Virus record (IMG/VR): IMGVR_UViG_3300034072_002212
Location: 1-30,416 of that record
DNA: 30,416 bases
Reading direction: 5' to 3' (one strand)
Source of the DNA: a virus
Taxonomy: Duplodnaviria > Heunggongvirae > Uroviricota > Caudoviricetes
Of the stretch, positions 5,186-28,123 are shown in pieces. The position numbers and the translations under genes are program-made. Position 1 is the stretch's first letter. Every line of letters starts with the position of its first letter. Under the pieces are notes generated by a model. It was not told the origin of the DNA, searched no databases, and was given only the letters and a program-made list of their open reading frames with translations.

Positions 5186-5244
5186 CGATCTCCTGTTTGT
5201 GCCTCGTTACCCAGACTTGGTAGCACAAACAGGTGAGCAGTCAA
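5186..5244 (-). promoter_or_regulatory. Sigma70-type promoter nested in an 11-bp inverted repeat that covers the RBS
   Basis: TTGACT(5244-5239)-N16-TACCAA(5222-5217); CCTGTTTGTGC (5233-5223, in the spacer) pairs with GCACAAACAGG (5202-5192, RBS). Confidence 0.7.
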
Positions 5245-5250
5245 CCACTT

Positions 5251-5874
5251 TTAGAGCTTTCGCTCCTTGAGATAGGCCTTCACGCGATCCTGCACCTCAG
5301 TGATCTTTGCCGTAGTCCGAAGACGCTCTTCCTCCAGAGTCTTCAGTGTTGCGTCCACCTTGTCCTTGAACAGGAGGGTCTCCTGGAAGATGTTGTCAAG
5401 CATGGGATGACGATTACCACGGGAAGCGCGATCCGCAAAGCTATTCGTGGATGAGCGCATATAGCTGACCTGGTTGAACTGATCCTGCATGCTCTTCTGA
5501 TAGTTCATCAGAACTTCATATTCCATGATCTCAGCTTCAATGGCCGAAGGCTCAAGGTCTCGCCATCCGCCAATGTATTTGGTGATGTTCTTGCCCACCT
5601 GATCATAGTTGAGCTTGAACCAGATCGCGTTGCGGGCTTCTTCAATCTGAACGATGTGACCGTAGAACTCGTGCTCCAAGCCTACCTTTTTGAGAGCCTG
5701 CTGGAACTCGTGCTCACCGTGAGGGAGGATCTTGAAGCGACCCTTGATTCCTCGCTTGAGCAGTTCAAGATCAAAGTCACCACGAATGGTGCCCTGCTTG
5801 TAGCGGTAACGGGTTCCACCCCAAACTGAGGTAGTGGCTTTGTGCCTTGCGGCCTGGTAGAGGAATAGGTGCAT
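5251..5874 (-). CDS. Hypothetical protein with AIWFKLNY motif and C-terminal coiled coil
   Basis: 207-aa ORF; the xxFKLx(W/Y) motif is shared with other genes in the window. Confidence 0.7.
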   Translation of the reverse strand: MHLFLYQAARHKATTSVWGGTRYRYKQGTIRGDFDLELLKRGIKGRFKILPHGEHEFQQALKKVGLEHEFYGHIVQIEEARNAIWFKLNYDQVGKNITKYIGGWRDLEPSAIEAEIMEYEVLMNYQKSMQDQFNQVSYMRSSTNSFADRASRGNRHPMLDNIFQETLLFKDKVDATLKTLEEERLRTTAKITEVQDRVKAYLKERKL

Positions 5875-5910
5875 ACCAGCTTTGTGCTAGGTTAGGTGCT
5901 GAAAAATCAA

Positions 5911-5916
5911 TAAATA
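5911..5916 (+). promoter_or_regulatory. TAAATA box, putative late promoter
   Basis: aaTAAATA upstream of AGGAGG and ATG 5943. Confidence 0.6.
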
Positions 5917-5942
5917 GGTTTAACCGCTTTTAGGAGGTCCCT

Positions 5943-6737
5943 ATGACTGACGCAAACAACATGCGCGGCTGGCTCAAGCTTTTTGAAGCCGCAGCACCAG
6001 ACTACGTGGGCCCCAAGGCCAGCGATACCGTTACCTACGCCGCAGAGCAAACCAAGGGTCAGATCACCAAGGTGACTGCATTCCTGAAGTCCTATGACTC
6101 GGCCCGCTATACCAATCTAGGCCGTAACCTGCTGAAGATTGAAACCCTCACCGAAGAGATCAAGATTCTGCAGCAGGAGACCAAGCAGGAAGCTCGCGAA
6201 CTCGTTGCGGACCTCTTCAACGCTGAAGACGCAGCGGTAACCCGTGTCGTTGATACTGTGGGTTTTGTGTTTCACATGAGCAAGGACCCTGCCCCAACGG
6301 CCTCTGTCAGCTATGCCAAAGTCCTCAAGGAACTCGAAGAGCATCTGACCCCAGAGCTTCTGAATGTCCTCGAGACCCTGAAAGCCAAGCACACCAGCGC
6401 GCCTGTTCAGAAGGCAGCTTCGCTAAAGGCAACCGACAAGGCTGCTCCAAAGACCGAAGAGAGCATCAATGAAGGTCTTGGCGATATGGCAGCAAAGCTG
6501 ACTGGCTTCTTCAAGAAGCTTTATCAGGATATCAAGGGCTGGGGCGTGAGCTACGACAGCAAGCTGGACCACCTCAAGGCCGAAATAGGCATGACTGAAG
6601 CCTGGGACGGCACCGGCGACGTCAGGGACGAAGTCGAGGGTTGCGAGCATGACTGGCACGAGGGCGTCGATGACGACGGTCACCTCGTTGAGCCACCATA
6701 TGATGTTTGCGTGAACTGCGGCGCAACGCGCCACTAA
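5943..6737 (+). CDS. Putative late/virion (internal head-like) protein
   Basis: Strong RBS and TAAATA box; LFE|A, INE|G and MTE|A resemble T4 gp21 prohead protease sites; CxH…CxxC at the C-terminus. Function is inferred. Confidence 0.6.
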   Translation: MTDANNMRGWLKLFEAAAPDYVGPKASDTVTYAAEQTKGQITKVTAFLKSYDSARYTNLGRNLLKIETLTEEIKILQQETKQEARELVADLFNAEDAAVTRVVDTVGFVFHMSKDPAPTASVSYAKVLKELEEHLTPELLNVLETLKAKHTSAPVQKAASLKATDKAAPKTEESINEGLGDMAAKLTGFFKKLYQDIKGWGVSYDSKLDHLKAEIGMTEAWDGTGDVRDEVEGCEHDWHEGVDDDGHLVEPPYDVCVNCGATRH

Positions 6738-7165
6738 GCGGGAACCCGCTTCAGGAGAACATTCTCCCAATCTGTGAGGCGACGAAGCATTTCATATTTC
6801 TTGAATGCTTCGTCCCTCTTAACCTCGAGGTCCTTCAAATCGGCCTCGAGGTTTCTTATGATCGACTTCCGCATCCAGCGGGTCACGAAGCTTCTCTCAA
6901 GCTCGCTCTTCAGTATTTCGCGCTGGTCTGCTACGCGGATGTTCGCCTCAAGGAAGGCCCTGAGGAGGGATCTGAGGTGCTCATTTTCCCTGACAATCCC
7001 GAAGCCATGTTTGTCAATCACATGACTGCGAATGGTGGCGACTCCATAACCAGGGAAGCCGCTTGGCGGCTTCGTCCAGCCCTCGTCTTCACCCTCGACG
7101 ATTTGGATCGCGCGCAGAAACGTGCGGTCGTCGAGCGTGAACTCGAAGTCACCATCCCACTTCAT
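6734..7165 (-). CDS. Hypothetical protein with C-terminal coiled coil
   Basis: Start overlaps the stop of the upstream gene (TGATG). Confidence 0.7.
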   Translation of the reverse strand: MKWDGDFEFTLDDRTFLRAIQIVEGEDEGWTKPPSGFPGYGVATIRSHVIDKHGFGIVRENEHLRSLLRAFLEANIRVADQREILKSELERSFVTRWMRKSIIRNLEADLKDLEVKRDEAFKKYEMLRRLTDWENVLLKRVPA

Positions 7166-8697
7166 CAGTTGGCCCGAACCCGAACCAGCCAGATATCCAC
7201 GCCGGGTTCTTCGCCCTCGGTTACTACCTTGCGCTTGGCATAGACAGCGTAGCCGTCCTTGGTAGTATCCTCGCGGCTGACCACCATGACACCCGGGCCG
7301 CTCATGGTCATCGTGCCCTCAACTGTGATGTTGGTCCCGCCAATCATCCGCATGCCGTTGGGGTTGAGGGAGTCGAAGGGCAGAAGCGCACGGCCGCCCA
7401 GCTCGCTGTTGTAGGGATAATTCTTGACCAGAATCTCATCGCGCTTGAGGTCGGCCTTCTCGAGCTCTTCGCGCAAATCCTCGGGCAGTTCATCCCAGAC
7501 CGTGGGGTCATCGTCGTGGACGAGATCCGCACCCTTGAAGATGCCGCGATCGCGTTCGCCACGAGCCTTGACGTCCTGCTCCTTCTCGGCCTGCTGGCGA
7601 CGGCGCTTCATTTCCTTGCGCTCGTTCTCCTGATGCTCGGCGCGAGCAGCTTCCGCGTGATCGCTCAGCTTGGGACGGGCCATGCCCTCGCCGCGCCGGA
7701 TGCGGTCATCACCCTTGACGTTGATCACGGAGTCAGCCGAACCATCGCCGCGCAGAACAGCCGCGAAGTCCTCAGGGCTGAACACCTTGCGGCCACCCTT
7801 GGCTTCAGCGACCTTTTCCGCGTGAGCAGCTTCAGCCGCGGCCTTTGCGACCTCGTCGACTTCGCCACCGCTCTTGTGTGCCATCACGCTCGTGATGCTG
7901 TCGAGGTCGATGCTACCGTCCTCGTTGCGCTCGGCCTTGATGTCCTCGATGAAGATCTCGCCGGCCTGTGCCTTGGCCTTCTGTGGAACCTCGCCGTCAT
8001 TGTAGACGCCCTGGACGTCAGGAACGCCCATACCCTTGAGGGCTTCGGCGAGCTCCTCGTTGGTCTTACTGTCATAGTCGGTGTTGGGGTCGAATTCCTT
8101 GAGCGCCTCCTGCGCCTGGGTGCGACCATATGCACCAGGGACATTGTTGGCGCCAGGACGTTCGCGACCGCTCCGCTGAGCATCGGCGCCGCCGAAGGAG
8201 TCGTCGGACAGGGTGCCCTGCTTCCGCATCTCCTTCATCTGTTCCTTCATCTTCTTGTCCGCCTCGACCTCTTCCTCGGTCCGGCGATCCCAGGGATCGT
8301 GCTGATCCAGGCCGAACCGCTCTTCGATGGTGCGGTTCTTTTCCTCTTCGGTCATCGTGGCCGCTTCATGCTTGATCTTGGCGTCATGGAGCATGTCAGC
8401 CTGGCGATCACGCCCGGCCATGCTCTTGACTTCCTGAAGCATGGACCACTCGGCCCAGAAGGCATCGCGCTGCACTTCGTCGTCATGATAAACGGCGAGA
8501 ACGCTATGCTTGTAGCCCTTGTAGGTTTCGGAGCGCATCGCGTCGAGGAAGTTTGACGCGTAGGTCTCGTTCCAGTTGCGATTGTCTTCCTGGCCGGTCA
8601 CGGCCTCGACGAAAGCCGTATATTCCTCGACAGTGTCACCCGCCACAACCAGCGTGGCCACTCGACTGTCGAGCATTTCCTTGTAACCGTAGATCAT
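7165..8697 (-). CDS. Large acidic, largely low-complexity hypothetical protein (510 aa)
   Basis: RBS AGGAG, own promoter, strongly GC3-biased codons. Confidence 0.75.
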   Translation of the reverse strand: MIYGYKEMLDSRVATLVVAGDTVEEYTAFVEAVTGQEDNRNWNETYASNFLDAMRSETYKGYKHSVLAVYHDDEVQRDAFWAEWSMLQEVKSMAGRDRQADMLHDAKIKHEAATMTEEEKNRTIEERFGLDQHDPWDRRTEEEVEADKKMKEQMKEMRKQGTLSDDSFGGADAQRSGRERPGANNVPGAYGRTQAQEALKEFDPNTDYDSKTNEELAEALKGMGVPDVQGVYNDGEVPQKAKAQAGEIFIEDIKAERNEDGSIDLDSITSVMAHKSGGEVDEVAKAAAEAAHAEKVAEAKGGRKVFSPEDFAAVLRGDGSADSVINVKGDDRIRRGEGMARPKLSDHAEAARAEHQENERKEMKRRRQQAEKEQDVKARGERDRGIFKGADLVHDDDPTVWDELPEDLREELEKADLKRDEILVKNYPYNSELGGRALLPFDSLNPNGMRMIGGTNITVEGTMTMSGPGVMVVSREDTTKDGYAVYAKRKVVTEGEEPGVDIWLVRVRAN

Positions 8698-8700
8698 GCT

Positions 8701-8752
8701 CGCTCCTGGAATTAGATCATCGCCGTTATAGCTGGAAACACCAGGGCGTCAA
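8701..8752 (-). promoter_or_regulatory. Sigma70-type promoter with an anti-SD arm in the spacer
   Basis: TTGACG(8752-8747)-N16-TATAAC(8730-8725); CGCCCTGG pairs with CCAGG(A)GCG (RBS, 8709-8701). Confidence 0.7.
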
Positions 8753-8757: not shown

Positions 8758-9165
8758 TTATGGTGCTGTAGGACCTCCCAGTTCAAAGTCTAATTGATAG
8801 GCATTCTTGCGGTTCTGTAGATTTTTGACGTTCACATAGTAGGTCTTATGTGAGTCCAGGAACAAGCGGTCATCCTCGCGATCAACCTTGAGAAAGCTGT
8901 CGTGGATCATGAACTTATCAGCACGTCGTTTGGCCCGGTGATGACCAAAGCCCGGATTAAGAACCAACCCATCTAGTGGTTCTTCGGAGATCCAAACGTC
9001 AATGCTGAAGTCTTGGCTGTTGGGCAGAATGTGCGCCACCGTAAGCTCAACTGAGCCAAACATAGGAACGCGAAGCTCAAACACATGGGTGTGGCCAGGA
9101 AGGATAGCATATTGCCCATATGGGTCACGCTGATCAACGGCATATTGAGTGATGATTGTGTCCAT
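8758..9165 (-). CDS. Beta-rich hypothetical protein (MDTIITQYAV…)
   Basis: Start taken as ATG 9165 because the longer track ORF reads through the tRNA. Confidence 0.65.
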   Translation of the reverse strand: MDTIITQYAVDQRDPYGQYAILPGHTHVFELRVPMFGSVELTVAHILPNSQDFSIDVWISEEPLDGLVLNPGFGHHRAKRRADKFMIHDSFLKVDREDDRLFLDSHKTYYVNVKNLQNRKNAYQLDFELGGPTAP

Positions 9166-9183
9166 GTGTCTACTTAGTAGGCA

Positions 9184-9255
9184 TGGAGCCCCTGTAGGGA
9201 GTCGAACCCTATCTTTAGGCTTAGAAGACCCAAGTCCCGATCCGCAGGCAGGGGC
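9184..9255 (-). tRNA. tRNA-Arg(UCU) with encoded CCA and a short, atypical D-arm
   Basis: Acceptor GCCCCTG/CAGGGGC, T-arm TAGGG-TTCGACT-CCCTA, anticodon loop CTTCTAA, U73-CCA; 72 nt in total. Confidence 0.85.
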
Positions 9256-9263
9256 GGATACGA

Positions 9264-9269
9264 TATTTA
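9264..9269 (-). promoter_or_regulatory. TAAATA box 8 nt upstream of the tRNA
   Basis: ggTAAATAtcgtatcc-GCCCC…. Confidence 0.5.
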
Positions 9270-9302
9270 CCTGAGAATGGGTCTCTTCCAAGTCATAGGT
9301 GT

Positions 9303-9331
9303 ATGGTAGAGCATCCCAGACTAGATGTCAA
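9303..9331 (-). promoter_or_regulatory. Sigma70-type promoter upstream of the tRNA
   Basis: TTGACA(9331-9326)-N17-TACCAT(9308-9303). Confidence 0.6.
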
Positions 9332-9608: not shown

Positions 9609-10074
9609 TCTTGGAGAAGCCCTCTTCCTTGGTAGGGGCTTGGTAACGCTTCTGCATGGACAGCAATGCCACGTAGGGCACGCTCTTCCCTGTTGCCAGC
9701 TTCCGCGCTTCCATCCGACGCTTTAGTTCAGCATCATCCACCACAAAGACCACGGCCTCTACCTCGGTCCCCTCGGGGAGGTCCTTGAAGTAGTCCTTGC
9801 GGTTCTTCGCACTCATCGAGGTGCGGTCGATGATGACATTCTTTCCAGCATTCAGAGCGTTCCTGTATGCGTACTTGAACGTCTTGTTGAACTGACCCCA
9901 CGGCGCCTTGGGGTGCGCTTCGTCGTAGGTCAAGCCCCGTTCCTTGGCCCACTCCTCAACTAGATCATCAGTCGAGGCAACCACCCATTCCTCCGTCTGC
10001 GTGGCCAGGAACTTTTCCCGCCACGTGGACTTGCCAGACGCCGGAGGCCCGATAAGGATGATTAGCTTTGCCAT
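9589..10074 (-). CDS. P-loop kinase, AAA_33 / polynucleotide-kinase-like
   Basis: LIILIGPPASGKST Walker A; STDD; VIIDRTS…NRK; LKRRMEAR lid. Confidence 0.8.
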   Translation of the reverse strand: MAKLIILIGPPASGKSTWREKFLATQTEEWVVASTDDLVEEWAKERGLTYDEAHPKAPWGQFNKTFKYAYRNALNAGKNVIIDRTSMSAKNRKDYFKDLPEGTEVEAVVFVVDDAELKRRMEARKLATGKSVPYVALLSMQKRYQAPTKEEGFSKITYVRP

Positions 10075-10080
10075 ACCCTC

Positions 10081-10109
10081 ACAATAGAGTAGGCATCACC
10101 TGCTGTCAA
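10081..10109 (-). promoter_or_regulatory. Sigma70-type promoter, probably leaderless
   Basis: TTGACA(10109-10104)-N17-TATTGT(10086-10081), then 6 nt to ATG. Confidence 0.55.
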
Positions 10110-12041: not shown

Positions 12042-12595
12042 TGATCGCCGTCCCGTGCTGCGAGGTTGGCGGCCTTGTAGGCTTCGCCGCGGGCGCGCTT
12101 GGCATCCTTGCTCTGCCGGATCTCTGCCAGCTTGGCCTTGACTTTGCTGTCAATGAGGGCTTGGCCCTGTGGACTCTCGAGGAACTCTTCAACGCTCTTG
12201 CGCGTCTGCCGGTTGTCATCTTCCTTGAGCAACTGGCGTGCCAGCTCTAGCTGATCCGCTCGCTCACGCTCATCACGGGCCATCCGATGATAGTTGGACT
12301 CCTCGTCATACTTCTCCCAGGAGTTGGTATCGTGGTCCCAATGCCTGGAGTCGTAGATCTTACAATCCACCATGAATCCCAGGAGTGTGAGACTGAAGCC
12401 CACACTCGCATGGTCAGAGCCAGTGGGGATCAGATCGAGATTGAAGCTGAAGAGCTCATTCCAGCCGAAATAGTCGGTCTGCCACTCAAAGGATTTGTTC
12501 TCGCTGATGTTGCGATGAGCGTAGGTCGAGAACCACTTCATGGGGCGGTTCTTCGCCCAACCATGTGGCAACGTGAGGTTGAGTCTGAAAGTCAT
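12038..12595 (-). CDS. Hypothetical protein (aromatic beta N-half, charged helical C-half)
   Basis: Own promoter; GTGA/ATGA-type overlap with the downstream gene. Confidence 0.7.
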   Translation of the reverse strand: MTFRLNLTLPHGWAKNRPMKWFSTYAHRNISENKSFEWQTDYFGWNELFSFNLDLIPTGSDHASVGFSLTLLGFMVDCKIYDSRHWDHDTNSWEKYDEESNYHRMARDERERADQLELARQLLKEDDNRQTRKSVEEFLESPQGQALIDSKVKAKLAEIRQSKDAKRARGEAYKAANLAARDGDQ

Positions 12596-12596
12596 A

Positions 12597-12630
12597 GCAC
12601 CGCGTTATAGGACTGCGGTGCACTTGTCAA
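12597..12630 (-). promoter_or_regulatory. Promoter with -10 in the loop of a 7-bp inverted repeat next to ATG
   Basis: TTGACA(12630-12625)-N15-TATAAC(12609-12604); GCACCGC/GCGGTGC; ATG 8 nt downstream. Confidence 0.55.
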
Positions 12631-12631
12631 A

Positions 12632-12669
12632 ACAAATGGCGTCGGGGCCCAACCCCCGACGCCATTTGT
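12632..12669 (-). terminator. Intrinsic terminator after the WYL gene
   Basis: Perfect 16-bp stem ACAAATGGCGTCGGGG/CCCCGACGCCATTTGT, 6-nt loop, followed by TTT. Confidence 0.8.
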
Positions 12670-13162: not shown

Positions 13163-13609
13163 TCAGGTAATGCGGAGTGGCTTCTGTTTGAATCCTGGCT
13201 TGCTGAAACGCTTCTCACAGTCACCTGTTGGCTTCCCAAAGAACGTTGGATCGAAATAGGTATCAACGCTGGTCTTAGGCGGTAAACCCTTGCGCGTCCG
13301 GCTGTGAACCTTGACTTCCTTGTAGGTCCAGGACAGCTTGAGCATCACATACTGGCTCTTGGTCAAGCCATAGGCGCAGAAGTGACGATCACACCAACCA
13401 TAGCTTCCATCCTCATACCAGCGAACCGGCACATCACGGAATTCGTTCCTGACTTCGGGGAACTGCTTACGGAGATGATTGATGAAGTCCTTGTTGGAGT
13501 TACGTGAATCCTTATAGCTGGGACTATAGAGATAAGAGGGATGGTTGATATAGAGGTTGATCAGTCCATCCTTGCGGACCAGAACCCGCACCTTGTTCTT
13601 CATGCTCAT
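13163..13609 (-). CDS. Hypothetical protein, paralog of 13606-14079
   Basis: Shares F(I/C)NxLRKxFP…CD(R/K)HFxAYGL…KL(S/A)W. Confidence 0.75.
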   Translation of the reverse strand: MSMKNKVRVLVRKDGLINLYINHPSYLYSPSYKDSRNSNKDFINHLRKQFPEVRNEFRDVPVRWYEDGSYGWCDRHFCAYGLTKSQYVMLKLSWTYKEVKVHSRTRKGLPPKTSVDTYFDPTFFGKPTGDCEKRFSKPGFKQKPLRIT

Positions 13610-14079
13610 GCGGTCCTCACGGGCTTGGCTTTGGTCTTGTTCTCAATGCGCTTCACTAGCGCATCGCTGGGACGAAAGCCCGCAGGTGCTTCAATGGCGT
13701 AAGCCGAGGGATCTGGGTGAGTAGCGGTCTTGAGTCGACAAGGCTGAGATGTGAATTGCCAAGCCAACTTGACCATCATGAGCTCGCTTCCCTTGAGACC
13801 ATAGGCCACGAAATGCTTGTCGCAGTTCACAGTCTTGAAGCGACGCCGAGACCAATAGGATCCGCGACCAACACGAACTTGCTTGGTGTTGACGTAGCGG
13901 AACTCAGTAGGGACGTGTGGAAAGGTCTTGCGGAGCCAGTTACAGAACGCCCTGGTCTTGTTGGCTTTTTCCTTGCGCTCCTTGTCCTTCCAATAGGTCA
14001 GGGAGTCGTGAGGCACCAGGATACAGAAGTCATCGGGACCACGCTCCAGGATTCTGATTGGATAGTCTAGCTCTTGCAT
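13606..14079 (-). CDS. Hypothetical protein, paralog of 13163-13609
   Basis: Same motif set; start at ATG 14079 preferred (7 nt after a -10-like box). Confidence 0.7.
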   Translation of the reverse strand: MQELDYPIRILERGPDDFCILVPHDSLTYWKDKERKEKANKTRAFCNWLRKTFPHVPTEFRYVNTKQVRVGRGSYWSRRRFKTVNCDKHFVAYGLKGSELMMVKLAWQFTSQPCRLKTATHPDPSAYAIEAPAGFRPSDALVKRIENKTKAKPVRTA

Positions 14080-14081
14080 AA

Positions 14082-14122
14082 TCCGCACCATAAAGAGGTG
14101 CGGAGCAAGGTGTCATTATTTA
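14082..14122 (-). promoter_or_regulatory. TAAATA box plus a weak sigma70-like promoter nested in an 8-bp inverted repeat
   Basis: TAAATA 14122-14117; ATGACA-N18-TATGGT; TCCGCACC/GGTGCGGA arms at 14104-14097 and 14089-14082. Confidence 0.45.
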
Positions 14123-14416
14123 GATCCAGGTAAGAGGCCGCTTGGCGCGCCGCTCCTGAAAGTTCTGGAAGTCACGTTTTTGTTGGCGGATCTCTTCCTC
14201 GTTATCCAAATGGCTCTTACAAGCCAGGATAACCTCTTCATAGGTCTTCATGACTCGCTTGTCCAGATCACCACGCAGACGAAAGCCTACCTGGCCTCCT
14301 ACGATGAGGCAAGTGATCATCCAGAGAATTGCGGTCGTTCGACCTATAGATTTGCGAGCTTGTCCAGCGTCATGGCGTTGACCATGTTCTGGCTGAGCCG
14401 GGCGATGTAGCGACAT
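14120..14416 (-). CDS. Small membrane-anchored protein (start uncertain)
   Basis: Hydrophobic AILWMITCLIVGG followed by a charged helix; the N-terminal extension overlaps the upstream gene. Confidence 0.5.
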   Translation of the reverse strand: MSLHRPAQPEHGQRHDAGQARKSIGRTTAILWMITCLIVGGQVGFRLRGDLDKRVMKTYEEVILACKSHLDNEEEIRQQKRDFQNFQERRAKRPLTWI

Positions 14417-14727
14417 TCCTTGACTTCCTGCTCAGCGACCACATCCTTGGGATGGGTCTTCATGGTCTTCACAGTGACCTTGCCGGTCTTGCCAATGCGG
14501 GAGACCCGACCGAGCATTGCCATGGGATAGCCACCCCAATGCACGAACATCACGTAGTCGCCCACATCAATCTCATCGCCGTAGCGATCCTTGGGCCACT
14601 TGTGACCCCTGAGCAGCTTGATGCGCTCAGGGGTCTGAGGATCACTTCCAGGGGCTGGGGATTCCACCGGTTCGCCCGTTGTCGTTGCCGGCGGTTGGCT
14701 TGGCTGTTCCGAGTTCGTCGACAGCAT
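14344..14727 (-). CDS. KOW/SH3-like small protein, paralog of the C-domains of the 15022 and 15741 genes
   Basis: KDRYGDEIDVGDYVMF…GRVSRI…; GGGGGTAAGG precedes ATG 14727; overlaps the lipoprotein gene. Confidence 0.6.
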   Translation of the reverse strand: MLSTNSEQPSQPPATTTGEPVESPAPGSDPQTPERIKLLRGHKWPKDRYGDEIDVGDYVMFVHWGGYPMAMLGRVSRIGKTGKVTVKTMKTHPKDVVAEQEVKECRYIARLSQNMVNAMTLDKLANL

Positions 14728-14965
14728 AGCTGACCTTACCCCCTTCCTTTTTGTAGCAGATCTGGCCAGTGCGAACGCTGCCGGCCTTGGTGCCGATGAA
14801 GTGACGACCCTTGCCCATTTTGCCGCAGGAGAAGGAGTCACGAATCAGGACCTTGCTGTAGCCCTGGCTCTCGAGATGCTTGGTAAGGTCCTCGTTGCGG
14901 ACCATGGGGCTCTGACCACACGCTGCGAGCGTTACGGCGAGAGCGACGATGCCAATGCGAAACAT
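14642..14965 (-). CDS. Small lipoprotein
   Basis: Lipobox LAAC after a hydrophobic stretch; RBS CAGGAG. Confidence 0.75.
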   Translation of the reverse strand: MFRIGIVALAVTLAACGQSPMVRNEDLTKHLESQGYSKVLIRDSFSCGKMGKGRHFIGTKAGSVRTGQICYKKEGGKVSYAVDELGTAKPTAGNDNGRTGGIPSPWK

Positions 14966-14967
14966 AT

Positions 14968-15017
14968 TTGGTCTCCTGATACGCAGACTGTTCTACGCTC
15001 AGGAGACCAATTGTCAA
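14968..15017 (-). promoter_or_regulatory. Promoter nested in a 12+6-bp hairpin that sequesters the RBS
   Basis: TTGACA(15017-15012)-N16-TAGAAC(14995-14990); TTGGTCTCCTGA/TCAGGAGACCAA is a perfect 12-bp repeat. Confidence 0.75.
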
Positions 15018-15021: not shown

Positions 15022-15741
15022 TTACAGGATCGAGAGGCGTGCCAGCATGAGCTTGTCCATGAGGTCCTTGCTCATGATGACGATCAGGCTGTTGTCCTTG
15101 ATTCGCTTCTCATCCACACGGTCATCTTCCTTGAGCTTGATGTTCTTGGCGTGAACCGTGCCATCATTCTCAATCTTCGAGACCTTGCCATAATAGATGC
15201 CTGCGGCGTTATGGCTGTTGTCGAAGTGATAGAGGATATAGGAGATGAAGTCGCCCTTCTTAATCTCACGACCCAGCTTATCCTTGGGTGTGATTGCGGG
15301 CGGGTCCTCCGGCTTTGCCCAGACCCACTTTGTGCCTTGCGAGGCGTCATAACCCTTAAGCCAATGAGCGCCCCAAGAGGCGTCAATACTGTTCGAGCGA
15401 CCGTCCCACTTTACCTTGAGCGTGGGATTGTATCGTTCAAGCTTGAGAGCATCTACGTTCTCTTCCTTGACCTCAATGGTCTGGCGCGCTGGACCTCGAT
15501 TGTAATAGCCACGATATTCAGTGGCACCGTGGAGGATGTTCTGCATCTCTTCATCAGAGATCACAATGCGACCAATGGAGCCAGTGCGGCGAGCATCGGT
15601 AGAACCGTCAAACTCTACAAACTGCGGCTCACCGCGAATGTAGGCCTTGACCATTTCGGCCATTTCCCTTGCCCACACCGAGGCGGACAAGCTCTGACCA
15701 TAATAACGGGAGATCCCGATTTTCTGAACCTGCTGGGTCAT
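15022..15741 (-). CDS. Hypothetical protein with C-terminal KOW/SH3-like domain
   Basis: KDKLGREIKKGDFISY…LMLARL; tandem paralog of 15741-16451. Confidence 0.75.
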   Translation of the reverse strand: MTQQVQKIGISRYYGQSLSASVWAREMAEMVKAYIRGEPQFVEFDGSTDARRTGSIGRIVISDEEMQNILHGATEYRGYYNRGPARQTIEVKEENVDALKLERYNPTLKVKWDGRSNSIDASWGAHWLKGYDASQGTKWVWAKPEDPPAITPKDKLGREIKKGDFISYILYHFDNSHNAAGIYYGKVSKIENDGTVHAKNIKLKEDDRVDEKRIKDNSLIVIMSKDLMDKLMLARLSIL

Positions 15742-17730: not shown

Positions 17731-17731
17731 G

Positions 17732-18166
17732 TCACTCGGTGATCTTGTTGTAATCATCGTCGATTTCGCCGTTCTCCTGCGCCTGCAGGATGCCGTCACC
17801 GATGATGTCGAGGTTGCTGTTGCTCATGCCGTGAAGCTTGTGGAACTCGATGATCTTCTCGCGATCATAGATCTCCTCGACGTCCACGTTGCTCCAGAAC
17901 TCTACGCTGGTCTCACTGTGCTTGCCCGCGAAGTCGCTGAAGTAAGCCGTTGTGCCCTCGAGAGCTGCCTTGATCTTGGCCCACTCTTCGCGAGTGTAGA
18001 TGACCTCGTCATAGAGGTCAGAGACACGACCATAGGTGAAACTGACCTTGACCAGCACCTTGTCCGCAAAGCGGAAGAGGTTCCGCTGAGCGTCGACCTC
18101 TTCCCAGGTCATTGCGAGGACACCGGCAACCACGATGCCCTCTGGTGTAACGCCTACATCAGCCAT
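17732..18166 (-). CDS. Acidic hypothetical protein (FAGKHSE motif)
   Basis: Clean ORF coupled to the upstream gene. Confidence 0.7.
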   Translation of the reverse strand: MADVGVTPEGIVVAGVLAMTWEEVDAQRNLFRFADKVLVKVSFTYGRVSDLYDEVIYTREEWAKIKAALEGTTAYFSDFAGKHSETSVEFWSNVDVEEIYDREKIIEFHKLHGMSNSNLDIIGDGILQAQENGEIDDDYNKITE

Positions 18167-19865
18167 CGACCGCTTCCTTCAAAGTCTCGAGATCCAGAAT
18201 GGTAGTCTTCAGCTTGCCATTGTAGGCCAGCTTGAACATCATCGCCGCGCCCTTGTTGGGGAACGTGACTGCGACCGAGCGGAAGTCAGTGGCCTTTTTA
18301 TAGGTCCCCTTCTTCATCTGGGTGCTCTTGATCGCAGCGTCGATGAGCGCCTGCTCCTCCTTGGAGATAGCGGTCGTGTCGCCGTGGTAGCCCACGTTGT
18401 CCAGCTTCTCCTCGTCGGTCTCAGTGAAGACTACCATGCCCTTCTGACTGTCGAGCAAGTTGGCCTTCTCGAGGGCCTTGTAGGCGGTGCGGACAGACGA
18501 GCCATACTTGACCGTCAGCTCACGCAATTCCCAAGACCGCTTGAACCAGTCGTGGAAGTCTTCGACCGGGCCGATTTCCTGGCGGGCCAGCTTGTCGAAC
18601 TTGACCAACTCCCAGTCCTCGGTCATGTGGAAGGTCTTGCCGCCGCCGCCCCACTCGGGCAGGGATTCGTCAGCGCCAGGCAGACCGTCATAGTAGCCAG
18701 TCATCATGAGGATGCTGGTCTTGGCCTTACCGAGGTTGTCCCACTTCTTGCCCTTCATGAACGTGTCGACCATCTCCTGATGATCAACACCATTGTCCTC
18801 GTTGGCGTCCTCTTCGTAGTGGTTCTTCCAGCGATAGTTGCCCTTGCTGTAGTCGGGCGCCAGGTAAAAGCGACCCGTGGGCTTGTGTCGCAGGCACCAC
18901 ACGTCGACCGTCGGAATGCTCTCGGCCTCGATGAAGTCCTTGATCATGCTGTATTCCAGACCGACCAGCTTGTCCTCGCCGTCGAACTGAACTTCGGCCA
19001 CGTTGCCGTATCGCTGACCGTGCCAACCGTTGGGGTTGAAGTAGGTATTGAACTTGCCGCGAACGGTGAAGATCTCACCGGCCTTGATGCTGCGGTAGAG
19101 CTTGGGCGTGTATTCGCCCAGGGTCTCCTGTGCGTTCTTCCGCATTGCCTCGCGAGCGGTGTACCAGTTCTGGTGCGCGTTGTTGTCGCAATGATTGTGG
19201 TCAGGGCGGGGATTAGCCTTGTCCCACTTGTCGATGTGGGCGTGATAGGCGCCGTTGGGAGCACCATAGTAGATGTCCACGTCTTGCGTGAACTTCCAGC
19301 GGCTCTTGTCGACCATCTGTTGACGCAGGTTGACCTTGGGCTGCTTCTTGCGCGCCTCAGGCTTTTCTGCAATCTCGAGGTGTCGAGCCTGAGCCCATTT
19401 GTTGTTCTTCGACCAGCCGACCAGGACATCATCCGGCGTATAGCGGGACTCACCCAGCTTTGTATATTCATCATGGATGGCGTGTTGAGCCTTGTTGTCG
19501 GCCTTCCACGCCTTCTCGAATTCCTTTTCTTTCTCGGGAAGGATCTCCCAGCGATCGTATGCCTGCTGGGTCCAGGTCTGACCGCCACGCGAATGAGTGG
19601 TCGCGGGATAGTGGACCTTGTGGCTGAGCGACTTCCGCAGCGTCTCGAACTCTTCCTGCAGGGCGCCGATACGACGCTGCCGCTCGTCCTTTTCCTGTTG
19701 GGTCAGCATGTCCTCTGCGCTAGGAAGCGCAACGTCGCTGATCTCTACGATCACTTCTTTGCTGGTCGTTTCCTTGGAAGTGCCATACCAGCGGCTGATC
19801 AGGGGAGTGCCCTTGGGCACCTTCATGTAGAGGCCCTTACGGAAGGGACTGTCGGTGAGGTCCAT
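18159..19865 (-). CDS. Large hypothetical protein (568 aa) ending in AMMFKLAY
   Basis: Start taken as ATG 19865 with RBS CAGGAG; the track's longer N-terminus overlaps the HNH gene. Confidence 0.75.
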   Translation of the reverse strand: MDLTDSPFRKGLYMKVPKGTPLISRWYGTSKETTSKEVIVEISDVALPSAEDMLTQQEKDERQRRIGALQEEFETLRKSLSHKVHYPATTHSRGGQTWTQQAYDRWEILPEKEKEFEKAWKADNKAQHAIHDEYTKLGESRYTPDDVLVGWSKNNKWAQARHLEIAEKPEARKKQPKVNLRQQMVDKSRWKFTQDVDIYYGAPNGAYHAHIDKWDKANPRPDHNHCDNNAHQNWYTAREAMRKNAQETLGEYTPKLYRSIKAGEIFTVRGKFNTYFNPNGWHGQRYGNVAEVQFDGEDKLVGLEYSMIKDFIEAESIPTVDVWCLRHKPTGRFYLAPDYSKGNYRWKNHYEEDANEDNGVDHQEMVDTFMKGKKWDNLGKAKTSILMMTGYYDGLPGADESLPEWGGGGKTFHMTEDWELVKFDKLARQEIGPVEDFHDWFKRSWELRELTVKYGSSVRTAYKALEKANLLDSQKGMVVFTETDEEKLDNVGYHGDTTAISKEEQALIDAAIKSTQMKKGTYKKATDFRSVAVTFPNKGAAMMFKLAYNGKLKTTILDLETLKEAVDG

Positions 19866-19866
19866 A

Positions 19867-19916
19867 CGATCTCCTGTTACTTTCAACCTGTGTAGCAGAT
19901 TGAGCAAACAGGACAA
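19867..19916 (-). promoter_or_regulatory. Promoter nested in a long hairpin covering the RBS
   Basis: TTGTCC-N16-TACACA; TCCTGTT…TCAATCTG-ctaca-CAGGTTGA…AACAGGA. Confidence 0.55.
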
Positions 19917-19958: not shown

Positions 19959-20387
19959 ATGCGCGAAAAACAGGCTGCTTCTATTGAAGAAACCAAAATC
20001 TATATTCAATCTAGGATTGTAAAAGATCCAGAAACTGATTGCTGGATTTGGTCCCAATTGAAGGACAAGAAAGGCTATGGTCTAGTTGATAGGGACACAC
20101 GGATCTTTCGTCTAGCCAAAACTACACATATCCATCGCGTATCCTACCTAGCATTCAAAGGCAAGTTAGAGGAAGGAATGGTTATTCGCCATCGCTGTAA
20201 TAACCATTCCTGTTGCAACCCTGTTCATCTAGAACAAGGAACTCAGCTTCAAAATATGGCTGACAAATATGAAGCTTTGGGTCAAAGGTCAGATGCTGCG
20301 CTAGTTGTTCTCAAACGTCAGCTGCAAGAATCTTTAGAAGCGGTCGAACAAGAACTCAGCCGACGAAAAAAGAGCCCCGGCGCATAG
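19959..20387 (+). CDS. Free-standing HNH homing endonuclease (HNH_3 type)
   Basis: CWIW…GYG…HRVSY…VIRHRCNNHSCCNPVHLEQGTQLQNMAD; AT-rich (17/60 GC at 19981-20040); TTGACG-N18-TAGAAT upstream. Confidence 0.85.
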   Translation: MREKQAASIEETKIYIQSRIVKDPETDCWIWSQLKDKKGYGLVDRDTRIFRLAKTTHIHRVSYLAFKGKLEEGMVIRHRCNNHSCCNPVHLEQGTQLQNMADKYEALGQRSDAALVVLKRQLQESLEAVEQELSRRKKSPGA

Positions 20388-20398
20388 CACCAGGGCCC
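20366..20398 (-). terminator. Intrinsic terminator of the putative sRNA
   Basis: GGGCCCTGGTGC-TAT-GCGCCGGGGCTC-TTTTTT (12-bp stem with G-U pairs). Confidence 0.8.
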
Positions 20399-20538
20399 AA
20401 GGAAAGCAGGAGATCGGTCTCAACTGCTATCGGAAACTCGGTTGCAAGGTTATTGTCGGGGCCCTATTGTCGGGCTGGCGATGGACGGCCATCCACACCA
20501 GTAAGTCCCTATCGCCGGGCCCTTATCGTCGCCTTGCC
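20366..20538 (-). ncRNA. Putative ~173-nt small RNA
   Basis: Lies between a promoter and an intrinsic terminator; no SD-led ORF; nested helices with two symmetric internal loops; anti-RBS segment. Confidence 0.65.
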
Positions 20539-20543
20539 ACACC

Positions 20544-20571
20544 TTGATAGCACCAGGAGACTTTGTGTCAA
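20544..20571 (-). promoter_or_regulatory. Sigma70-type promoter of the putative sRNA
   Basis: TTGACA(20571-20566)-N16-(TGc)TATCAA(20549-20544), same geometry as other promoters here. Confidence 0.7.
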
Positions 20572-21279: not shown

Positions 21280-21312
21280 TAAGGGCTCGCTGTATTTACC
21301 AGCGAGCCCTTA
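21280..21312 (-). terminator. 13-bp perfect hairpin (terminator-like) with TAAATA in its loop
   Basis: TAAGGGCTCGCTG-GTAAATA-CAGCGAGCCCTTA-TTGT. Confidence 0.7.
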
Positions 21313-21808: not shown

Positions 21809-22987
21809 TTATTCGCTGTCGGGCAGGAAGTAGTGAGGGATGAAGCGAGAAGTGTTGCCCGTCACCTCGCTCACGTCTTCGCGGATGCCCATGCCCGACG
21901 GGCGGCCGCCTACGATCCAGCTGCCGATGATCGGCGTCATGCCGTCGTGCTTCGGAAGCGGAAGGTATTCCTGGTAGATGGCCTTGGCCAGCGCATCATA
22001 GCCGCGCTTGACGCCCTCGACGGCGACCTTACCATCCCGAATGATCTTCACGTCTGCGCCCTCGCGCGCCAGCATGGGCTTCTCGACATAGTTGCCCTTG
22101 AGCGGCGCGCTCTGCCAGTAGGCCGGCAGCAGGTTCTCGTGACCCTCGTAGAGTTCCCAGAGGATGGGCAGGATGCCCTTGTTCGAGAGAACCAGCTTCC
22201 AGGCCGGCTCCAGAACGTCCCAGGGCTCCTTGAGCATGAACTTGCCGAAGTCCTCGCGGACCAGCCATTCCCAGGGATAGAGCTTGAAAATCGTGTTGAT
22301 CGGCTTCTCGTTGAGATCCGTGAACGAGGTGCCGTTCCAGCCGATCTGCTCGATATCGAGATAGTCGGTCTTGAGGCCGGCCTGGATCGCGCAGTCCCGG
22401 AGGTATTCCGCCGTGCCCTTGTCCTCGAGGTTCTCCGCGACCGCCGCGAAGTAGAACGTCTCGTTCGGGCCGAGCACCTGGTCGCCGACATACTTCAGCT
22501 GTTCGATCAGCCGCTCATGGATGCTGTTGAACTGATCGAGCGTCTGACCCGTGCGCTGGGCATACTGTTCCATCCAGAACCACTGGACGACCGATGCCTC
22601 GAGCAGCGAAGTCGGAGTGTCGGCGTTGAACTCCAGCATCTTGGGAGTGCCATCGGCCGCCAGAGCGAAGTCGAAGCGACCATAGAGGTCCACGTCCTGG
22701 CGCTCCCAGGACTTCTTGATCAGCGCGTGGAAGTCGGCGGGGATGGCGAGCTGGCTGAGCAGGTCACGCTCGATCGCATAGTCGACTGCCGAAAGGCACA
22801 TGCGATCGAGGACCGTGCTGGCTTCCTCGATCTTGTCGACTTCGCCGGCCGTGAATTCATATGCGTGGGTTTCATCCCAATACATGGGATCGACACCGGG
22901 GTCGGTTGCGAGGGTGTGCCAGTAGAAACCGACCTTCTCGCACTGTGCCTGCCAATCCGGCCGGGCTTCAATTGCCAAACGCTTCAA
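21809..22987 (-). CDS. Glutathionylspermidine-synthase-like ATP-grasp ligase (YgiC/YjfC family)
   Basis: YWDE…YGRFDF…KMLEFNADTPTSLLEA…FKLYPWEW…EPAWK…SNKGILP…KPMLAREG…IGSW…GIRE; no amidase domain. Confidence 0.9.
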   Translation of the reverse strand: MKRLAIEARPDWQAQCEKVGFYWHTLATDPGVDPMYWDETHAYEFTAGEVDKIEEASTVLDRMCLSAVDYAIERDLLSQLAIPADFHALIKKSWERQDVDLYGRFDFALAADGTPKMLEFNADTPTSLLEASVVQWFWMEQYAQRTGQTLDQFNSIHERLIEQLKYVGDQVLGPNETFYFAAVAENLEDKGTAEYLRDCAIQAGLKTDYLDIEQIGWNGTSFTDLNEKPINTIFKLYPWEWLVREDFGKFMLKEPWDVLEPAWKLVLSNKGILPILWELYEGHENLLPAYWQSAPLKGNYVEKPMLAREGADVKIIRDGKVAVEGVKRGYDALAKAIYQEYLPLPKHDGMTPIIGSWIVGGRPSGMGIREDVSEVTGNTSRFIPHYFLPDSE

Positions 22988-22989
22988 TT

Positions 22990-23042
22990 CGATCTCCTGT
23001 GATCCGTTGTCCTGTGTCTATGCGAAACAGGACCGAAGTCAA
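22990..23042 (-). promoter_or_regulatory. Promoter whose spacer arm can pair with a proximal arm or with the RBS
   Basis: TTGACT(23042-23037)-N16-TAGACA(23020-23015); GTCCTGT/ACAGGAC, alternatively TCCTGT with ACAGGA of the RBS. Confidence 0.6.
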
Positions 23043-26580: not shown

Positions 26581-26587
26581 GCCACCA

Positions 26588-27046
26588 TTATAGGGTGGCA
26601 GGCGGCTCCTCGTCATTATTCAGGTCATCCTGCTTGCTGAGCAGGAGAGGAAGAATCGCGAAGATGATTGCTAGAGCAATCACAATCTTAATGGGCTGAC
26701 CCTTGGCGCTAGTGGCCGCCGCGCTGATTACGAAGAAGGCCAGAATGGCCGTGCTCACCGGACGGAGACGAAAGTAGGTCTCCACCTTATCGAGCAGGTT
26801 CTTGTCCTTCTCGATGCTAGTGGCCAGAGCCTTTTCTGTTTCCGTCTGATAACCCTCAGGATTATCAGCGGTGCGGTTCTGAGGGTTCACGGGATCATAC
26901 TGCATGCGGTTGAGTTGCCGATGCAGATAGATCACCAGGCGTCGGAAAGGCCCAAAGCGCCGGAGCGAACGCTCATAACGGCGCAATAGAGAATCTCGGG
27001 TTTCCTGAACCTGGTGAACTACGTCGTCGATGAAAGTGTTCTTCAT
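26588..27046 (-). CDS. Membrane protein with two C-terminal TM helices
   Basis: Hydrophobic segments AILAFFVISAAA and IVIALAIIFAILPLLL. Confidence 0.65.
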   Translation of the reverse strand: MKNTFIDDVVHQVQETRDSLLRRYERSLRRFGPFRRLVIYLHRQLNRMQYDPVNPQNRTADNPEGYQTETEKALATSIEKDKNLLDKVETYFRLRPVSTAILAFFVISAAATSAKGQPIKIVIALAIIFAILPLLLSKQDDLNNDEEPPATL

Positions 27047-27618
27047 TCCCTGACCAGCTTGATGATCTTCGCAATAGCGCGCTTCACCCTTTCATCGGGC
27101 AAATTGGCTGCGTCGTCAAGCGAAATCCACTCGGCTCCCAGCACCTCTTCTTCCTGATGAACCAGCGACACTTCAGCAGTCGCGATGCCAAGATAGAGGA
27201 AGTCATGATGCCAATGCGCTGCTTCATCCTTTTCGGGACGAGCGGGAATCGCATGAGTGTCGATATCAAGAGCCAGGTAGTCCATGTGATCCAAGAAGGC
27301 CACATGCTCTTCCGGAAAACCAGTTTCCTCAGTGAGCTCACGGAGTGCTGACTTACGAGGAGCAACCGCGCCCTCATAGTGGCCACCAGGGAAAAGCCAC
27401 TTGTCAAAACCCCTGTGGTGGATCATCAACACCTTGGTCTTCTCGGGATTCAGAAGAGCAAAGCTGGACGTCACGTGTCCCGCGAAGTTGCGACGATCCT
27501 GTAGATCATGCCCTTCGTCAATCTGACGCTTCAAGTGGGCAAAGATCTGGGTGTCCAGCATCTTGTGATAGGCTAGATAGTTGTGGAGGTGGAGACCCAC
27601 CAGCGAGGTAATGTTCAA
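27043..27618 (-). CDS. Nudix hydrolase
   Basis: WLFPGGH…SALRELTEETG Nudix box. Confidence 0.85.
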   Translation of the reverse strand: MNITSLVGLHLHNYLAYHKMLDTQIFAHLKRQIDEGHDLQDRRNFAGHVTSSFALLNPEKTKVLMIHHRGFDKWLFPGGHYEGAVAPRKSALRELTEETGFPEEHVAFLDHMDYLALDIDTHAIPARPEKDEAAHWHHDFLYLGIATAEVSLVHQEEEVLGAEWISLDDAANLPDERVKRAIAKIIKLVRE

Positions 27619-27776
27619 GGATTCACTCCAAGCTGAGCCAGGATGCCCTTGGCAACCCTGAGCTCAAGCTCATATTGTTCTGGCGTGTGGTTGCCGTTGA
27701 ACCTCTTGAGTGCGAAGTCCAGCATCAGCTTGATCTTGCGCTCATAGGCATTCTGTGGTTGAAAGCCGTCGCACAT
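27615..27776 (-). CDS. 53-aa ORF absent from the track (MCDGFQPQNAYERKIKLMLDF…GVNP)
   Basis: Fills the clpS-Nudix gap exactly; its TGA overlaps the Nudix TTG start (TTGA). Confidence 0.65.
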   Translation of the reverse strand: MCDGFQPQNAYERKIKLMLDFALKRFNGNHTPEQYELELRVAKGILAQLGVNP

Positions 27777-27779
27777 GGA

Positions 27780-28073
27780 TCAAGCCTTTTCGACAATAGC
27801 CTTGAGGGGATGCTTATAGGACTTGGCGACCGTGTTGGTCTCATAGACCTTCTGCTCGGCGACTTCCTTGCTGTAGGTGCCGCAGATGCCCCGACCCTGA
27901 TGGTGAACGTCCATGCAGAGCTTGTGCGCTTCTGCGTGGCTCTTGCTGAAGATCTCCATCAGCACCTGGATCACGAAGTCCATGGGCGTGAAGTCATCGT
28001 TCAGGATCACAACCTTGTAGAGGCTGGGAACCTTCAGCTTGGTTACAGTCTGAGTGTCGAGTGCGGTGCTCAT
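27780..28073 (-). CDS. clpS: ATP-dependent Clp protease adaptor ClpS
   Basis: PSLYKVVILNDDFTPMDFV…MDVHHQG…EVAEQKV…HPL; RBS AAGGAG. Confidence 0.92.
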   Translation of the reverse strand: MSTALDTQTVTKLKVPSLYKVVILNDDFTPMDFVIQVLMEIFSKSHAEAHKLCMDVHHQGRGICGTYSKEVAEQKVYETNTVAKSYKHPLKAIVEKA

Positions 28074-28088
28074 GTGGTCTCCTTGGTT

Positions 28089-28123
28089 CACACCTACATA
28101 CGGATCACGGTGTGTAGAATCAA
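28089..28123 (-). promoter_or_regulatory. clpS promoter with -10 in the loop of a 6-bp inverted repeat
   Basis: TTGATT-N17-TATGTA; CACACC/GGTGTG. Confidence 0.45.

Follow-up and report, generated by a model that had tools for sequence, protein, structure and literature searches.

Promoter-nested stem-loops at sigma70-type early promoters are already known as promoter-early stem-loops (PeSLs). They were described in phages RB49 and phi1 by Arbiol et al. (2010), where one stem-loop attenuated a lacZ fusion like rrnB T1 (PMC2839356), and were extended to T4/PST and KVP40/nt-1 by Comeau et al. (2014; PMC4122927). A related arrangement is found at the T4 genes e, soc, 49 and I-TevI, whose Shine-Dalgarno sequence (SD) and/or AUG is buried in a structure in long early transcripts but accessible in RNA from internal late promoters (PMC3014915). 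Here, we analyse recurrent hairpins nested in sigma70-type promoters within the first 30,416 nt of the virus record IMGVR_UViG_3300034072_002212 (the window, i.e. the whole stretch of DNA under study). The original prediction of these hairpins, made by a model from the letters alone, appealed to the T4 genes, a precedent that is indeed documented, and missed the PeSLs.

The window opens a record of 181,816 nt (about 55% G+C). The tail sheath protein is 53% identical to that of Sinorhizobium phage Phosso (469 kb) and 51% identical to that of Agrobacterium phage Atu_ph07 (490 kb), and syntenic uncultured relatives measure 416-465 kb. The record further encodes collagen-like tail fibres, a portal, ribonucleotide reductase, topoisomerase II, glutathionylspermidine synthase and ADP-ribosylglycohydrolase. 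Judged by its genes, it is a fragment of an Atu_ph07/Phosso-like jumbo myovirus, a soil phage of roughly 470 kb. The cultured relatives infect Alphaproteobacteria, and the host of the source phage is probably alphaproteobacterial as well. A megablast of 20 kb against phage records gave no match, and an Rfam search over the whole window matched no family. Nearly all genes at 2583-31031 lie on the minus strand, so the predicted hairpins must be read on that strand.

We propose that each cassette joins a host sigma70-type promoter and a very short leader, or none, to a hairpin whose 5' strand would lie in the untranscribed promoter core, that is in the -35/-10 spacer or, at some promoters, in one of the two hexamers. 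RNA started locally would begin between the two strands, so the hairpin could not form and the ribosome-binding site would stay open. RNA arriving from a co-directional upstream gene would hold both strands and fold. At about a quarter to a third of the promoters the 3' strand would be the SD and/or the start codon and would exclude the 30S subunit, and the masked gene would be translated mainly from its own promoter, like the T4 e/soc/49/I-TevI gates. At the other structured promoters the stem just brackets the -10 and would more probably act in a PeSL-like way, affecting upstream transcription or the 3' terminus of the upstream RNA. We put the probability that translational masking of read-through RNA is the selected effect of the nested hairpins at about 55%. 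The elements themselves are real and selected, and most likely act at the RNA level.

The listed sites show two layouts on the minus strand. One consists of (gg)TTGAC(A/T/G), 16-18 nt, TAnnnn, a leader of 17-34 nt with an AGGAG-type SD, and the start codon; in the other, an ATG lies 4-9 nt past the -10 without an SD. The predicted cassettes of the window are as follows.

5180-5244, minus strand: s1, with -35 TTGACT (5239-5244), -10 TACCAA (5217-5222), SD AGGAGA (5189-5194) and start TTG (5180-5182).
8695-8752, minus strand: s2, with -35 TTGACG (8747-8752), -10 TATAAC (8725-8730), SD (8705-8709) and start ATG (8695-8697).
12593-12630, minus strand: s3, leaderless type, with -35 TTGACA (12625-12630), -10 TATAAC (12604-12609) and ATG (12593-12595).
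14077-14116, minus strand: s4, leaderless type, with -35-like ATGACA (14111-14116), -10 TATGGT (14087-14092) and ATG (14077-14079).
14963-15017, minus strand: s5, the clearest case, with -35 TTGACA (15012-15017), -10 TAGAAC (14990-14995) in the loop and ATG (14963-14965).
17186-17243, minus strand: s6, with -35 TTGACA (17238-17243), a non-canonical -10 and start GTG (17186-17188).
19863-19916, minus strand: s7, with degenerate -35 TTGTCC (19911-19916), -10 TACACA (19889-19894) and ATG (19863-19865).
22985-23042, minus strand: s8, with -35 TTGACT (23037-23042), -10 TAGACA (23015-23020) and start TTG (22985-22987).
28071-28123, minus strand: s11, with -35-like TTGATT (28118-28123), -10 TATGTA (28095-28100) and ATG (28071-28073).

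A generic promoter scan misses most of these sites because it demands a T at the last position of the -10. We therefore defined a promoter set over the whole 181.8-kb genome by exact TTGAC and a TA at 16-18 nt, mostly intergenic and with a gene start downstream. This yielded 35 promoters with a leader of 17-46 nt or none.

Among these 35 promoters, a perfect complement of at least 7 nt between the spacer and its own leader occurs at nine, compared with 1.2 expected from non-cognate pairs (p<2e-4). The mean spacer/leader duplex energy is -11.0 kcal/mol for cognate and -8.7 kcal/mol for non-cognate pairs. The null was formed by all non-cognate pairs; none of 5000 permutations reached either the repeat count or the mean energy, and a chance origin of the pairing is rejected. 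In addition, 14 of the 35 segments running from promoter to start fold with z<-2.

Masking was expressed as the opening cost, that is the free energy required to make positions -15 to +4 single-stranded. It was computed for RNA from the predicted start site (local), for RNA from 25 nt upstream of the -35 (read-through) and for RNA whose upstream part was swapped from another promoter (chimeric). The means were 3.3, 8.1 and 5.9 kcal/mol, respectively (0 of 5000 permutations, p<2e-4). Nine of the 35 promoters lie above all 34 chimeras, namely s1, s5 and those at genome 86461, 95986, 124810, 131925, 137252, 145227 and 150365. The claim that the downstream arm covers the ribosome-binding site or start codon is thus borne out for a subset, while several other stems only flank the -10. 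The upstream arm had been placed in the -35/-10 spacer, which holds with an extension to the hexamers. In the folds, the antisense strand is the spacer at s1, s5 and 145227, the -10 itself at 86461 and 150365, the -35 itself at 95986, 137252 and 55408, and the end of the upstream gene at 148652. Given the predicted start sites, the 5' arm must be absent from locally started RNA, in agreement with the claim that the hairpin forms in read-through RNA only. The spacers had also been said to carry anti-SD words, and two such words are enriched about five-fold, TCCT (14 vs about 3-4) and CCTG (15 vs about 2.6), at variable positions and on the sense strand only.

The pairing is conserved while its sequence is not. 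Eight related loci cover the sites of the window. Cognate energies lie below non-cognate ones in 7 of 7 related contig sets, and a 40.6-kb stretch of Phosso with 12 promoters gives -11.1 vs -7.7 kcal/mol (p=2e-4). For orthologous promoters, duplexes within a genome are 3.07 kcal/mol stabler than those across genomes (Wilcoxon p=3e-5, n=51, not all independent). This comparison is alignment-free, and the stems of s6 shift register between genomes. The arms thus co-evolve, as one would wish from the covariation in related phages that had been named as a check; compensatory and G.U changes are found at s1, s2 and s4, with compensatory ones at s1 and s4.

Masking also depends on the neighbouring gene. 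Where the upstream gene is co-directional (26 promoters), the masking excess over chimeras averages 3.16 kcal/mol and reaches at least 4 at 8 of 26; at divergent junctions (9 promoters) it averages -0.30 kcal/mol and reaches that value at 1 of 9 (one-sided p=0.011). Promoters whose -35 directly adjoins the upstream stop codon show the largest excess. This concentration fits the co-directional array setting that had been proposed and a function on read-through RNA. It argues against a promoter-intrinsic DNA element, which would not depend on the upstream gene. Sense RNA of the promoter segments folds better than antisense RNA (-14.6 vs -12.7, p about 0.001), with unbiased coding controls; this strand evidence for action at the RNA level is suggestive only.

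At the level of single cassettes, nine of the eleven inverted repeats originally reported are present at their coordinates; that at 8701-8748 (s2) is just a bulged pairing of 5+3 bp, and that at 9271-9319 has no seed of at least 6 nt. In s5, TTGGTCTCCTGA (14999-15010) pairs over 12 bp with TCAGGAGACCAA (14968-14979), which covers the SD and ends 2 nt before the ATG, and the fold extends to about 19 bp. Its opening cost is 23.7 kcal/mol in read-through and 4.1 kcal/mol in local RNA. In related locus L017 the orthologue covers the SD with a 13-bp stem of unrelated sequence, GGGTTCTCCTTCC/GGAAGGAGAACCC, which again ends at the start codon; L013 has an 8-bp stem adjoining the SD, and L010 has no stem. 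In s1, the spacer arm CCTGTTTGTGC (5223-5233) and GCACAAACAGG (5192-5202), which overlaps the SD, form 11 perfect bp (14 nt at 93%). Opening costs 14.9 kcal/mol in read-through and 5.0 kcal/mol in local RNA, and 0 of 34 chimeras reach the former. The consensus fold of five genomes has 18 pairs, two of which change to G.U, and one compensatory G-C/C-G swap splits two genomes from three.

Across its full length the s6 spacer is complementary to the leader, in three segments that take in the SD and the GTG start: CACCTG (17234-17239) with CAGGTG (17186-17191, containing the GTG), GTCTC (17229-17233) with GAGAC (17195-17199, the SD), and ACCTATG (17222-17228) with CGTAGGT (17205-17211, one G.U). 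The repeat search reports it as 17185-17191/17225-17239, 6+6 bp. These composite helices are kept in 7 relatives with different sequences (within-genome -16.3 vs cross-genome -12.9 kcal/mol). The 7-bp arms of s7, TCCTGTT (19907-19913) and AACAGGA (19872-19878), cover the SD, and L017 has a different SD-masking pair, AGTCCTC/GAGGACT. The arms of s4 are TCCGCACC (14097-14104) and GGTGCGGA (14082-14089); in L010 this 8-bp helix is kept by three compensatory pair changes (CCTACAC/GTGTAGG), and the duplex energy is -14.1 kcal/mol within and -5.1 kcal/mol across genomes. The pairing of s2 joins the spacer CGCCCTGG to CCAGGAGCG over the SD and is the weakest among the SD-covering sites, with masking not above chimeras; in relatives, CCUGG/CCAGG becomes CCUGG/CUAGG, and pairing is kept via G.U.

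The remaining cassettes are structured around the -10. In s3, 7-bp arms GCACCGC (12615-12621) and GCGGTGC (12597-12603) surround it, with the ATG 1 nt after the stem; in the orthologues of L011 and L012, the -35 pairs with the 3' end of the spacer instead. A canonical terminator lies at 12632-12669 (minus strand), with a stem of 16 bp and a loop of 6. Its U tract leads without a gap into the s3 -35 TTGACA, and the terminator is kept with different stems in the same two loci. The s8 arm GTCCTGT (23027-23033) pairs with the proximal ACAGGAC (23009-23015) and leaves the SD uncovered (23009-23018/23024-23033, 10 nt at 90%). Its alternative partner is ACAGGAG (22994-23000), the SD itself, with 6-bp pairing at 22995-23000. 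Masking at s8 is not above chimeras, and relatives show short stems of 5-8 bp around or before the -10 with other sequences, in L015 a -35/spacer stem. Finally, the 6-bp arms of s11, CACACC (28109-28114) and GGTGTG (28089-28094), flank the -10 with the SD uncovered, and L015 has a 12-bp stem, GTGGACTCCTAC/GTAGGAGTCCAC, at the same place.

A census of perfect repeats (arms of 8 nt or more, loops of 3-35 nt) found 179 genome-wide, 70 of them inside intergenic segments compared with 6.2 in shuffles. Together with the nine cognate spacer/leader complements against 1.2, this answers the comparison with shuffled DNA in favour of the original prediction, with the caveat that intergenic DNA of this phage is hairpin-rich overall and just 7 of the repeats span the -10 of a TTGAC promoter. 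At co-directional junctions, each repeat of 8 nt or more with a 3' arm ending at most 16 nt from the start codon holds a promoter, with the predicted start site inside. Five of these promoters are TTGAC-type, two have a degenerate -35 (genome 108154-108194, TTGAAA-17-TTAGAC; 37600-37653, TTGCCT-18-TAGACA) and one is TAAATA. Where a hairpin has no internal promoter, it keeps a greater distance from the start. Such a distribution is expected if SD masking allows expression only where a nested promoter supplies hairpin-free RNA.

As to the promoters themselves, GGTTGAC has 51 copies genome-wide, 26 of them within the 13% of intergenic DNA, and the -35 is kept in every relative while the flanking sequence changes. 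The -10 hexamers keep the TA but frequently lack the final T, and TG or GC is often found just before them, a pattern that we take to resemble published alphaproteobacterial sigma70 consensus sequences. When the sequences after 40 intergenic GTTGAC sites are stacked unaligned, their information content reveals only a weak T/A signal at the -10. A leaderless promoter without a strong hairpin gives further evidence:

10072-10109, minus strand: leaderless promoter with TTGACA (10104-10109), TATTGT (10081-10086) and an ATG exactly 6 nt after the -10.

Here, the distance from -10 to ATG is 6 nt in 5 of 5 genomes though the intervening bases differ. Such a fixed distance would be expected if transcription began at the A of the ATG, and it supports the promoter and start-site assignments used throughout. 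A leaderless look, with the ATG 4-9, mostly 6, nt past the -10 and no SD, is seen at 9 of the 35 promoters (in the window 10072-10109, 12593-12630 and 14077-14116). Leaderless genes would be efficiently translatable from their own promoter alone, which would be a second route to the same outcome as masking.

Several observations weigh against masking as the role of these hairpins, or limit its reach. About 60-70% of the promoters show no specific masking, so the description of a "generalised" insulator that lets each gene be translated only from its own promoter was overstated. Several strong stems (23009-23033, 28089-28114, genome 132598-132621 and 34727-34755) bracket the -10 and leave the SD untouched, and a strong terminator already precedes the s3 promoter. 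Anti-SD words are not significantly more frequent in SD-led than in leaderless spacers (24/58 vs 6/26, p=0.14). For the arm duplex alone, the difference between sense and antisense is not significant (n=84 promoters, p=0.12); a subset with p=0.03 had been selected on sense energy and was not used. Moreover, the -10 elements are weak by E. coli rules, and a generic E. coli-type scan picks only 3 window sites. Promoter-less genes are similarly costly to open in a 110-nt RNA context (9.45 vs 9.99 kcal/mol for promoter-bearing ones), a comparison confounded because ribosomes on the upstream open reading frame would unfold the structure.

Since PeSL stem-loops between or over the -35 and -10 cut downstream lacZ as strongly as rrnB T1 (PMC2839356), a transcriptional role remains a serious rival. 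The stems would then stop, pause or end-protect upstream transcripts, SD overlap would be a by-product tolerated where hairpin-free RNA comes from a local promoter, and stem and promoter would overlap only as a result of intergenic gaps of 55-75 nt. The general richness of intergenic DNA in hairpins, so few of which span a -10, speaks for such an attenuator or 3'-end hairpin. So do the variable stem positions (the -35 lies in the loop at genome 131909-131940, and -35/spacer stems occur in L012 and L015), and the dependence on a co-directional upstream gene fits it equally well. U-rich tails follow some stems (genome 34727-34755, 108154-108194), but in most stems that span a promoter no U tract follows, the next 8 nt containing 0-2 T; of the seven promoter-spanning repeats measuring 8 nt or more, only that at genome 34727-34755 has a U-rich tail lying outside coding sequence. 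True terminators elsewhere, e.g. 12632-12669 and 20372-20398, do have one, and the promoter hairpins were rejected as intrinsic terminators, defined by a G+C-rich stem with an immediate U tract. The longest stems, moreover, end exactly on the SD or start (s5, genome 145235-145269, L016 with 14 bp, L017 with 13 bp), SD masking at s1, s2 and s6 survives sequence change across 5-8 genomes, and s3 and genome 55408 have a separate upstream terminator as well. With the enrichment of TCCT and CCTG in the spacers also against it, we regard attenuation as a possible but doubtful account of the selected effect. Under this account and under translational masking alike, read-through RNA is predicted to be poorly translated at masked genes.

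The original prediction named two further alternatives, and both fit poorly. An inverted repeat could act in DNA, as a cruciform exposing the -10 or as the site of a dimeric regulator, and it is true that the arms flank the -10, that some loops are short (4-7 nt at genome 132598-132621 and 34727-34755) and that perfect repeats alone cannot tell DNA from RNA. But arm sequences differ at each site and between orthologues, and a common operator is rejected; the loops of 13-26 nt disfavour cruciform extrusion; orthologues have acquired G.U pairs; and the effect varies with how the upstream gene is oriented. Action in DNA is therefore highly improbable. N4-type hairpin promoters, with a 5-7-bp stem, a 3-nt loop, a fixed place and a conserved sequence, were rejected too, as loops here span 4-26 nt, stems span 6-19 bp and sequences are unrelated. 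It is just as hard to believe that the stems are sites for RNase III or another double-strand-specific nuclease, cutting polycistronic early RNA into monocistronic units as in T7. The intercistronic position in a co-directional array would suit such processing, and the s5 helix of about 19 bp approaches the length of about 20 bp or more expected of an RNase III site. This enzyme needs roughly two helical turns, however, and most stems, mostly 7-14 bp and apart from s5 all within 6-14 bp, are too short; nor was a conserved internal-loop pattern or an Rfam match found.

A hairpin of another class had been counted among the variants:

16491-16519, minus strand: hairpin 16491-16501/16509-16519 (11 nt at 91%) after a conserved AATATAGACA, with no TTGAC promoter.

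The repeat is thus present, but it does not belong with the cassettes. Its stem is kept with differing sequence in L013 and L016, and AATATAGACA directly follows the upstream stop codon. The hairpin would form the 5' terminus of its own RNA and may represent another promoter class with a 5'-terminal stabilising hairpin.

Cassettes also share a ribosome-site module, GGAGATCG(A/G)A, 8 of whose 9 copies in a ribosome-binding context lie downstream of TTGAC promoters (window 5186-5195, 19867-19876 and 22990-22999; genome 52424, 55365, 131884, 132587 and 148703). Phosso carries the same module. The UCGA of the module is able to pair with the UUGA of the -35 (columns 1-4 with 57-60 in the five-genome s1 consensus fold). 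At 20366-20571 on the minus strand, a promoter TTGACA-16-TATCAA (20544-20571) is followed by about 170 nt without an SD-led open reading frame and by a strong terminator (20372-20398). The predicted RNA carries, at 20407-20416, the sequence CGAUCUCCUG. This is perfectly complementary to the CAGGAGAUCG ribosome site found at the genes with starts at 5182, 19865 and 22987, which makes the RNA a candidate trans-acting anti-ribosome-site RNA.

The genome also holds 24 intergenic TAAATA motifs upstream of SD-led genes, many of them structural (e.g. window 5906-5911 on the plus strand, 17727-17732 and 30190-30195 on the minus strand). These are probably T4-type late promoters. Their flanks pair better in cognate than in non-cognate combinations (-13.2 vs -11.2 kcal/mol, p=8e-4), and near genome 36057 a 9-bp CCTCAGAGT/ACTCTGAGG pair lies over the SD. 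At 21280-21312 on the minus strand, upstream of the gene starting at 21262, a 13-bp G+C-rich hairpin with TAAATA in its 7-nt loop and a U-rich tail looks like a terminator with a late promoter in the loop; L014, L015 and L017 retain the stem, with both compensatory and G.U changes.

One may join these observations into a family-wide design rule of the phages of about 470 kb, namely promoter-specific translation. The promoter core would be antisense to its own initiation region, the GGAGAUCGA ribosome-site module would be co-adapted to the universal -35 (UUGA/UCGA), and a phage small RNA with CGAUCUCCUG would mask in trans. We consider this joint reading speculative and rather unlikely. If true, synthesis of early proteins would be confined to the period in which host sigma70 promoters are active, irrespective of later read-through.

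If masking works, protein output in dense phage gene arrays would be set by which promoter made the RNA, not by RNA abundance alone, and RNA sequencing alone would misreport the expression timing of masked genes. Part of the PeSL class would have to be reinterpreted as translational rather than transcriptional insulators, and the T4 late-gene trick would extend to host-type promoters in unrelated jumbo phages of Alphaproteobacteria. The signal is also found in the cultured phage Phosso (PV764938.1), for instance at promoters at positions 17746 and 19949 of L094, which makes the idea directly testable. As a design principle, a promoter spacer that serves as an anti-ribosome-site strand would provide a compact insulator for synthetic operons.

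Compared with PeSLs, the cassettes show the same compact intergenic order of stop codon, sigma70-like early promoter, stem-loop between or over the -35 and -10, SD and start; at the level of motifs, a sigma70-type early promoter appears to lie in a short intergenic region that ends at the SD or start of the next gene. As with PeSLs, there are many copies in blocks of small early genes, stems contain G-T pairs, and promoter-plus-ORF (open reading frame) units appear to be gained and lost between relatives. Among L010-L013, such units are gained, lost or replaced exactly at cassette boundaries (8758-9331, 14120-14965), which is reminiscent of PeSL-mediated modular shuffling. L011 lacks both cassettes at 14120-14965, and its homologue of 15022-15741 is joined directly to that of 13606-14079 with no promoter; a homologue of the ORF at 8758-9291 was found in none of the relatives compared.

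The differences concern position, sequence and lineage. The PeSL stem-loop lies wholly upstream of the start site, and its terminator or attenuator activity has been demonstrated. Here, that placement is seen at genome 131909-131940, 132598-132621 and 34727-34755, in L012 (s3) and in L015 (s8), whereas at s1, s5, s6, s7 and genome 145235-145269 the 3' arm lies in the transcribed leader. It is thus often past the predicted start site, on the SD or start, with the -10 held in loops of 13-26 nt and usually no U tract. PeSLs share about 100 bp of sequence, whereas the cassettes share just GGTTGAC and the GGAGATCG ribosome-site module, and they belong to an Atu_ph07/Phosso-like lineage of about 470 kb.

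The likeness to the T4 gates lies in the SD or AUG held in a helix in long RNA, which is predicted here for a subset only, and in a promoter placed so that its own transcript, from the predicted start site, would lack the 5' strand. The RNA of the internal promoter is well translated in T4 and predicted to be so here. The mobE gene of Aeh1 is grouped with these promoter-in-hairpin translational gates. In T4, the nested promoter is a late one (gp55, TATAAATA) and the gate delays a few late genes; here, a host sigma70-type promoter with a TTGAC -35, not TATAAATA, stands at many early genes, and the phage has the classical T4 form as well, at its own TAAATA late promoters. The fold-back inhibition of IS10/Tn10, said to have been reported by Davis, Simons and Kleckner in 1985, is reportedly similar in that a sequence upstream of the transposase gene's own start site pairs with its initiation region, leaving outside transcripts translationally silent. 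It, too, involves a sigma70 promoter, but it consists of one site, at an insertion-sequence end, that guards a single gene and is neither repeated in a phage array nor homologous. The elements fit best under the heading of PeSL-like composite cassettes, here in a non-T4 jumbo phage. PeSLs of T4-type phages and the T4 gates were already known; cassettes that would mask the ribosome-binding site at early promoters are new for the Atu_ph07/Phosso-like lineage.

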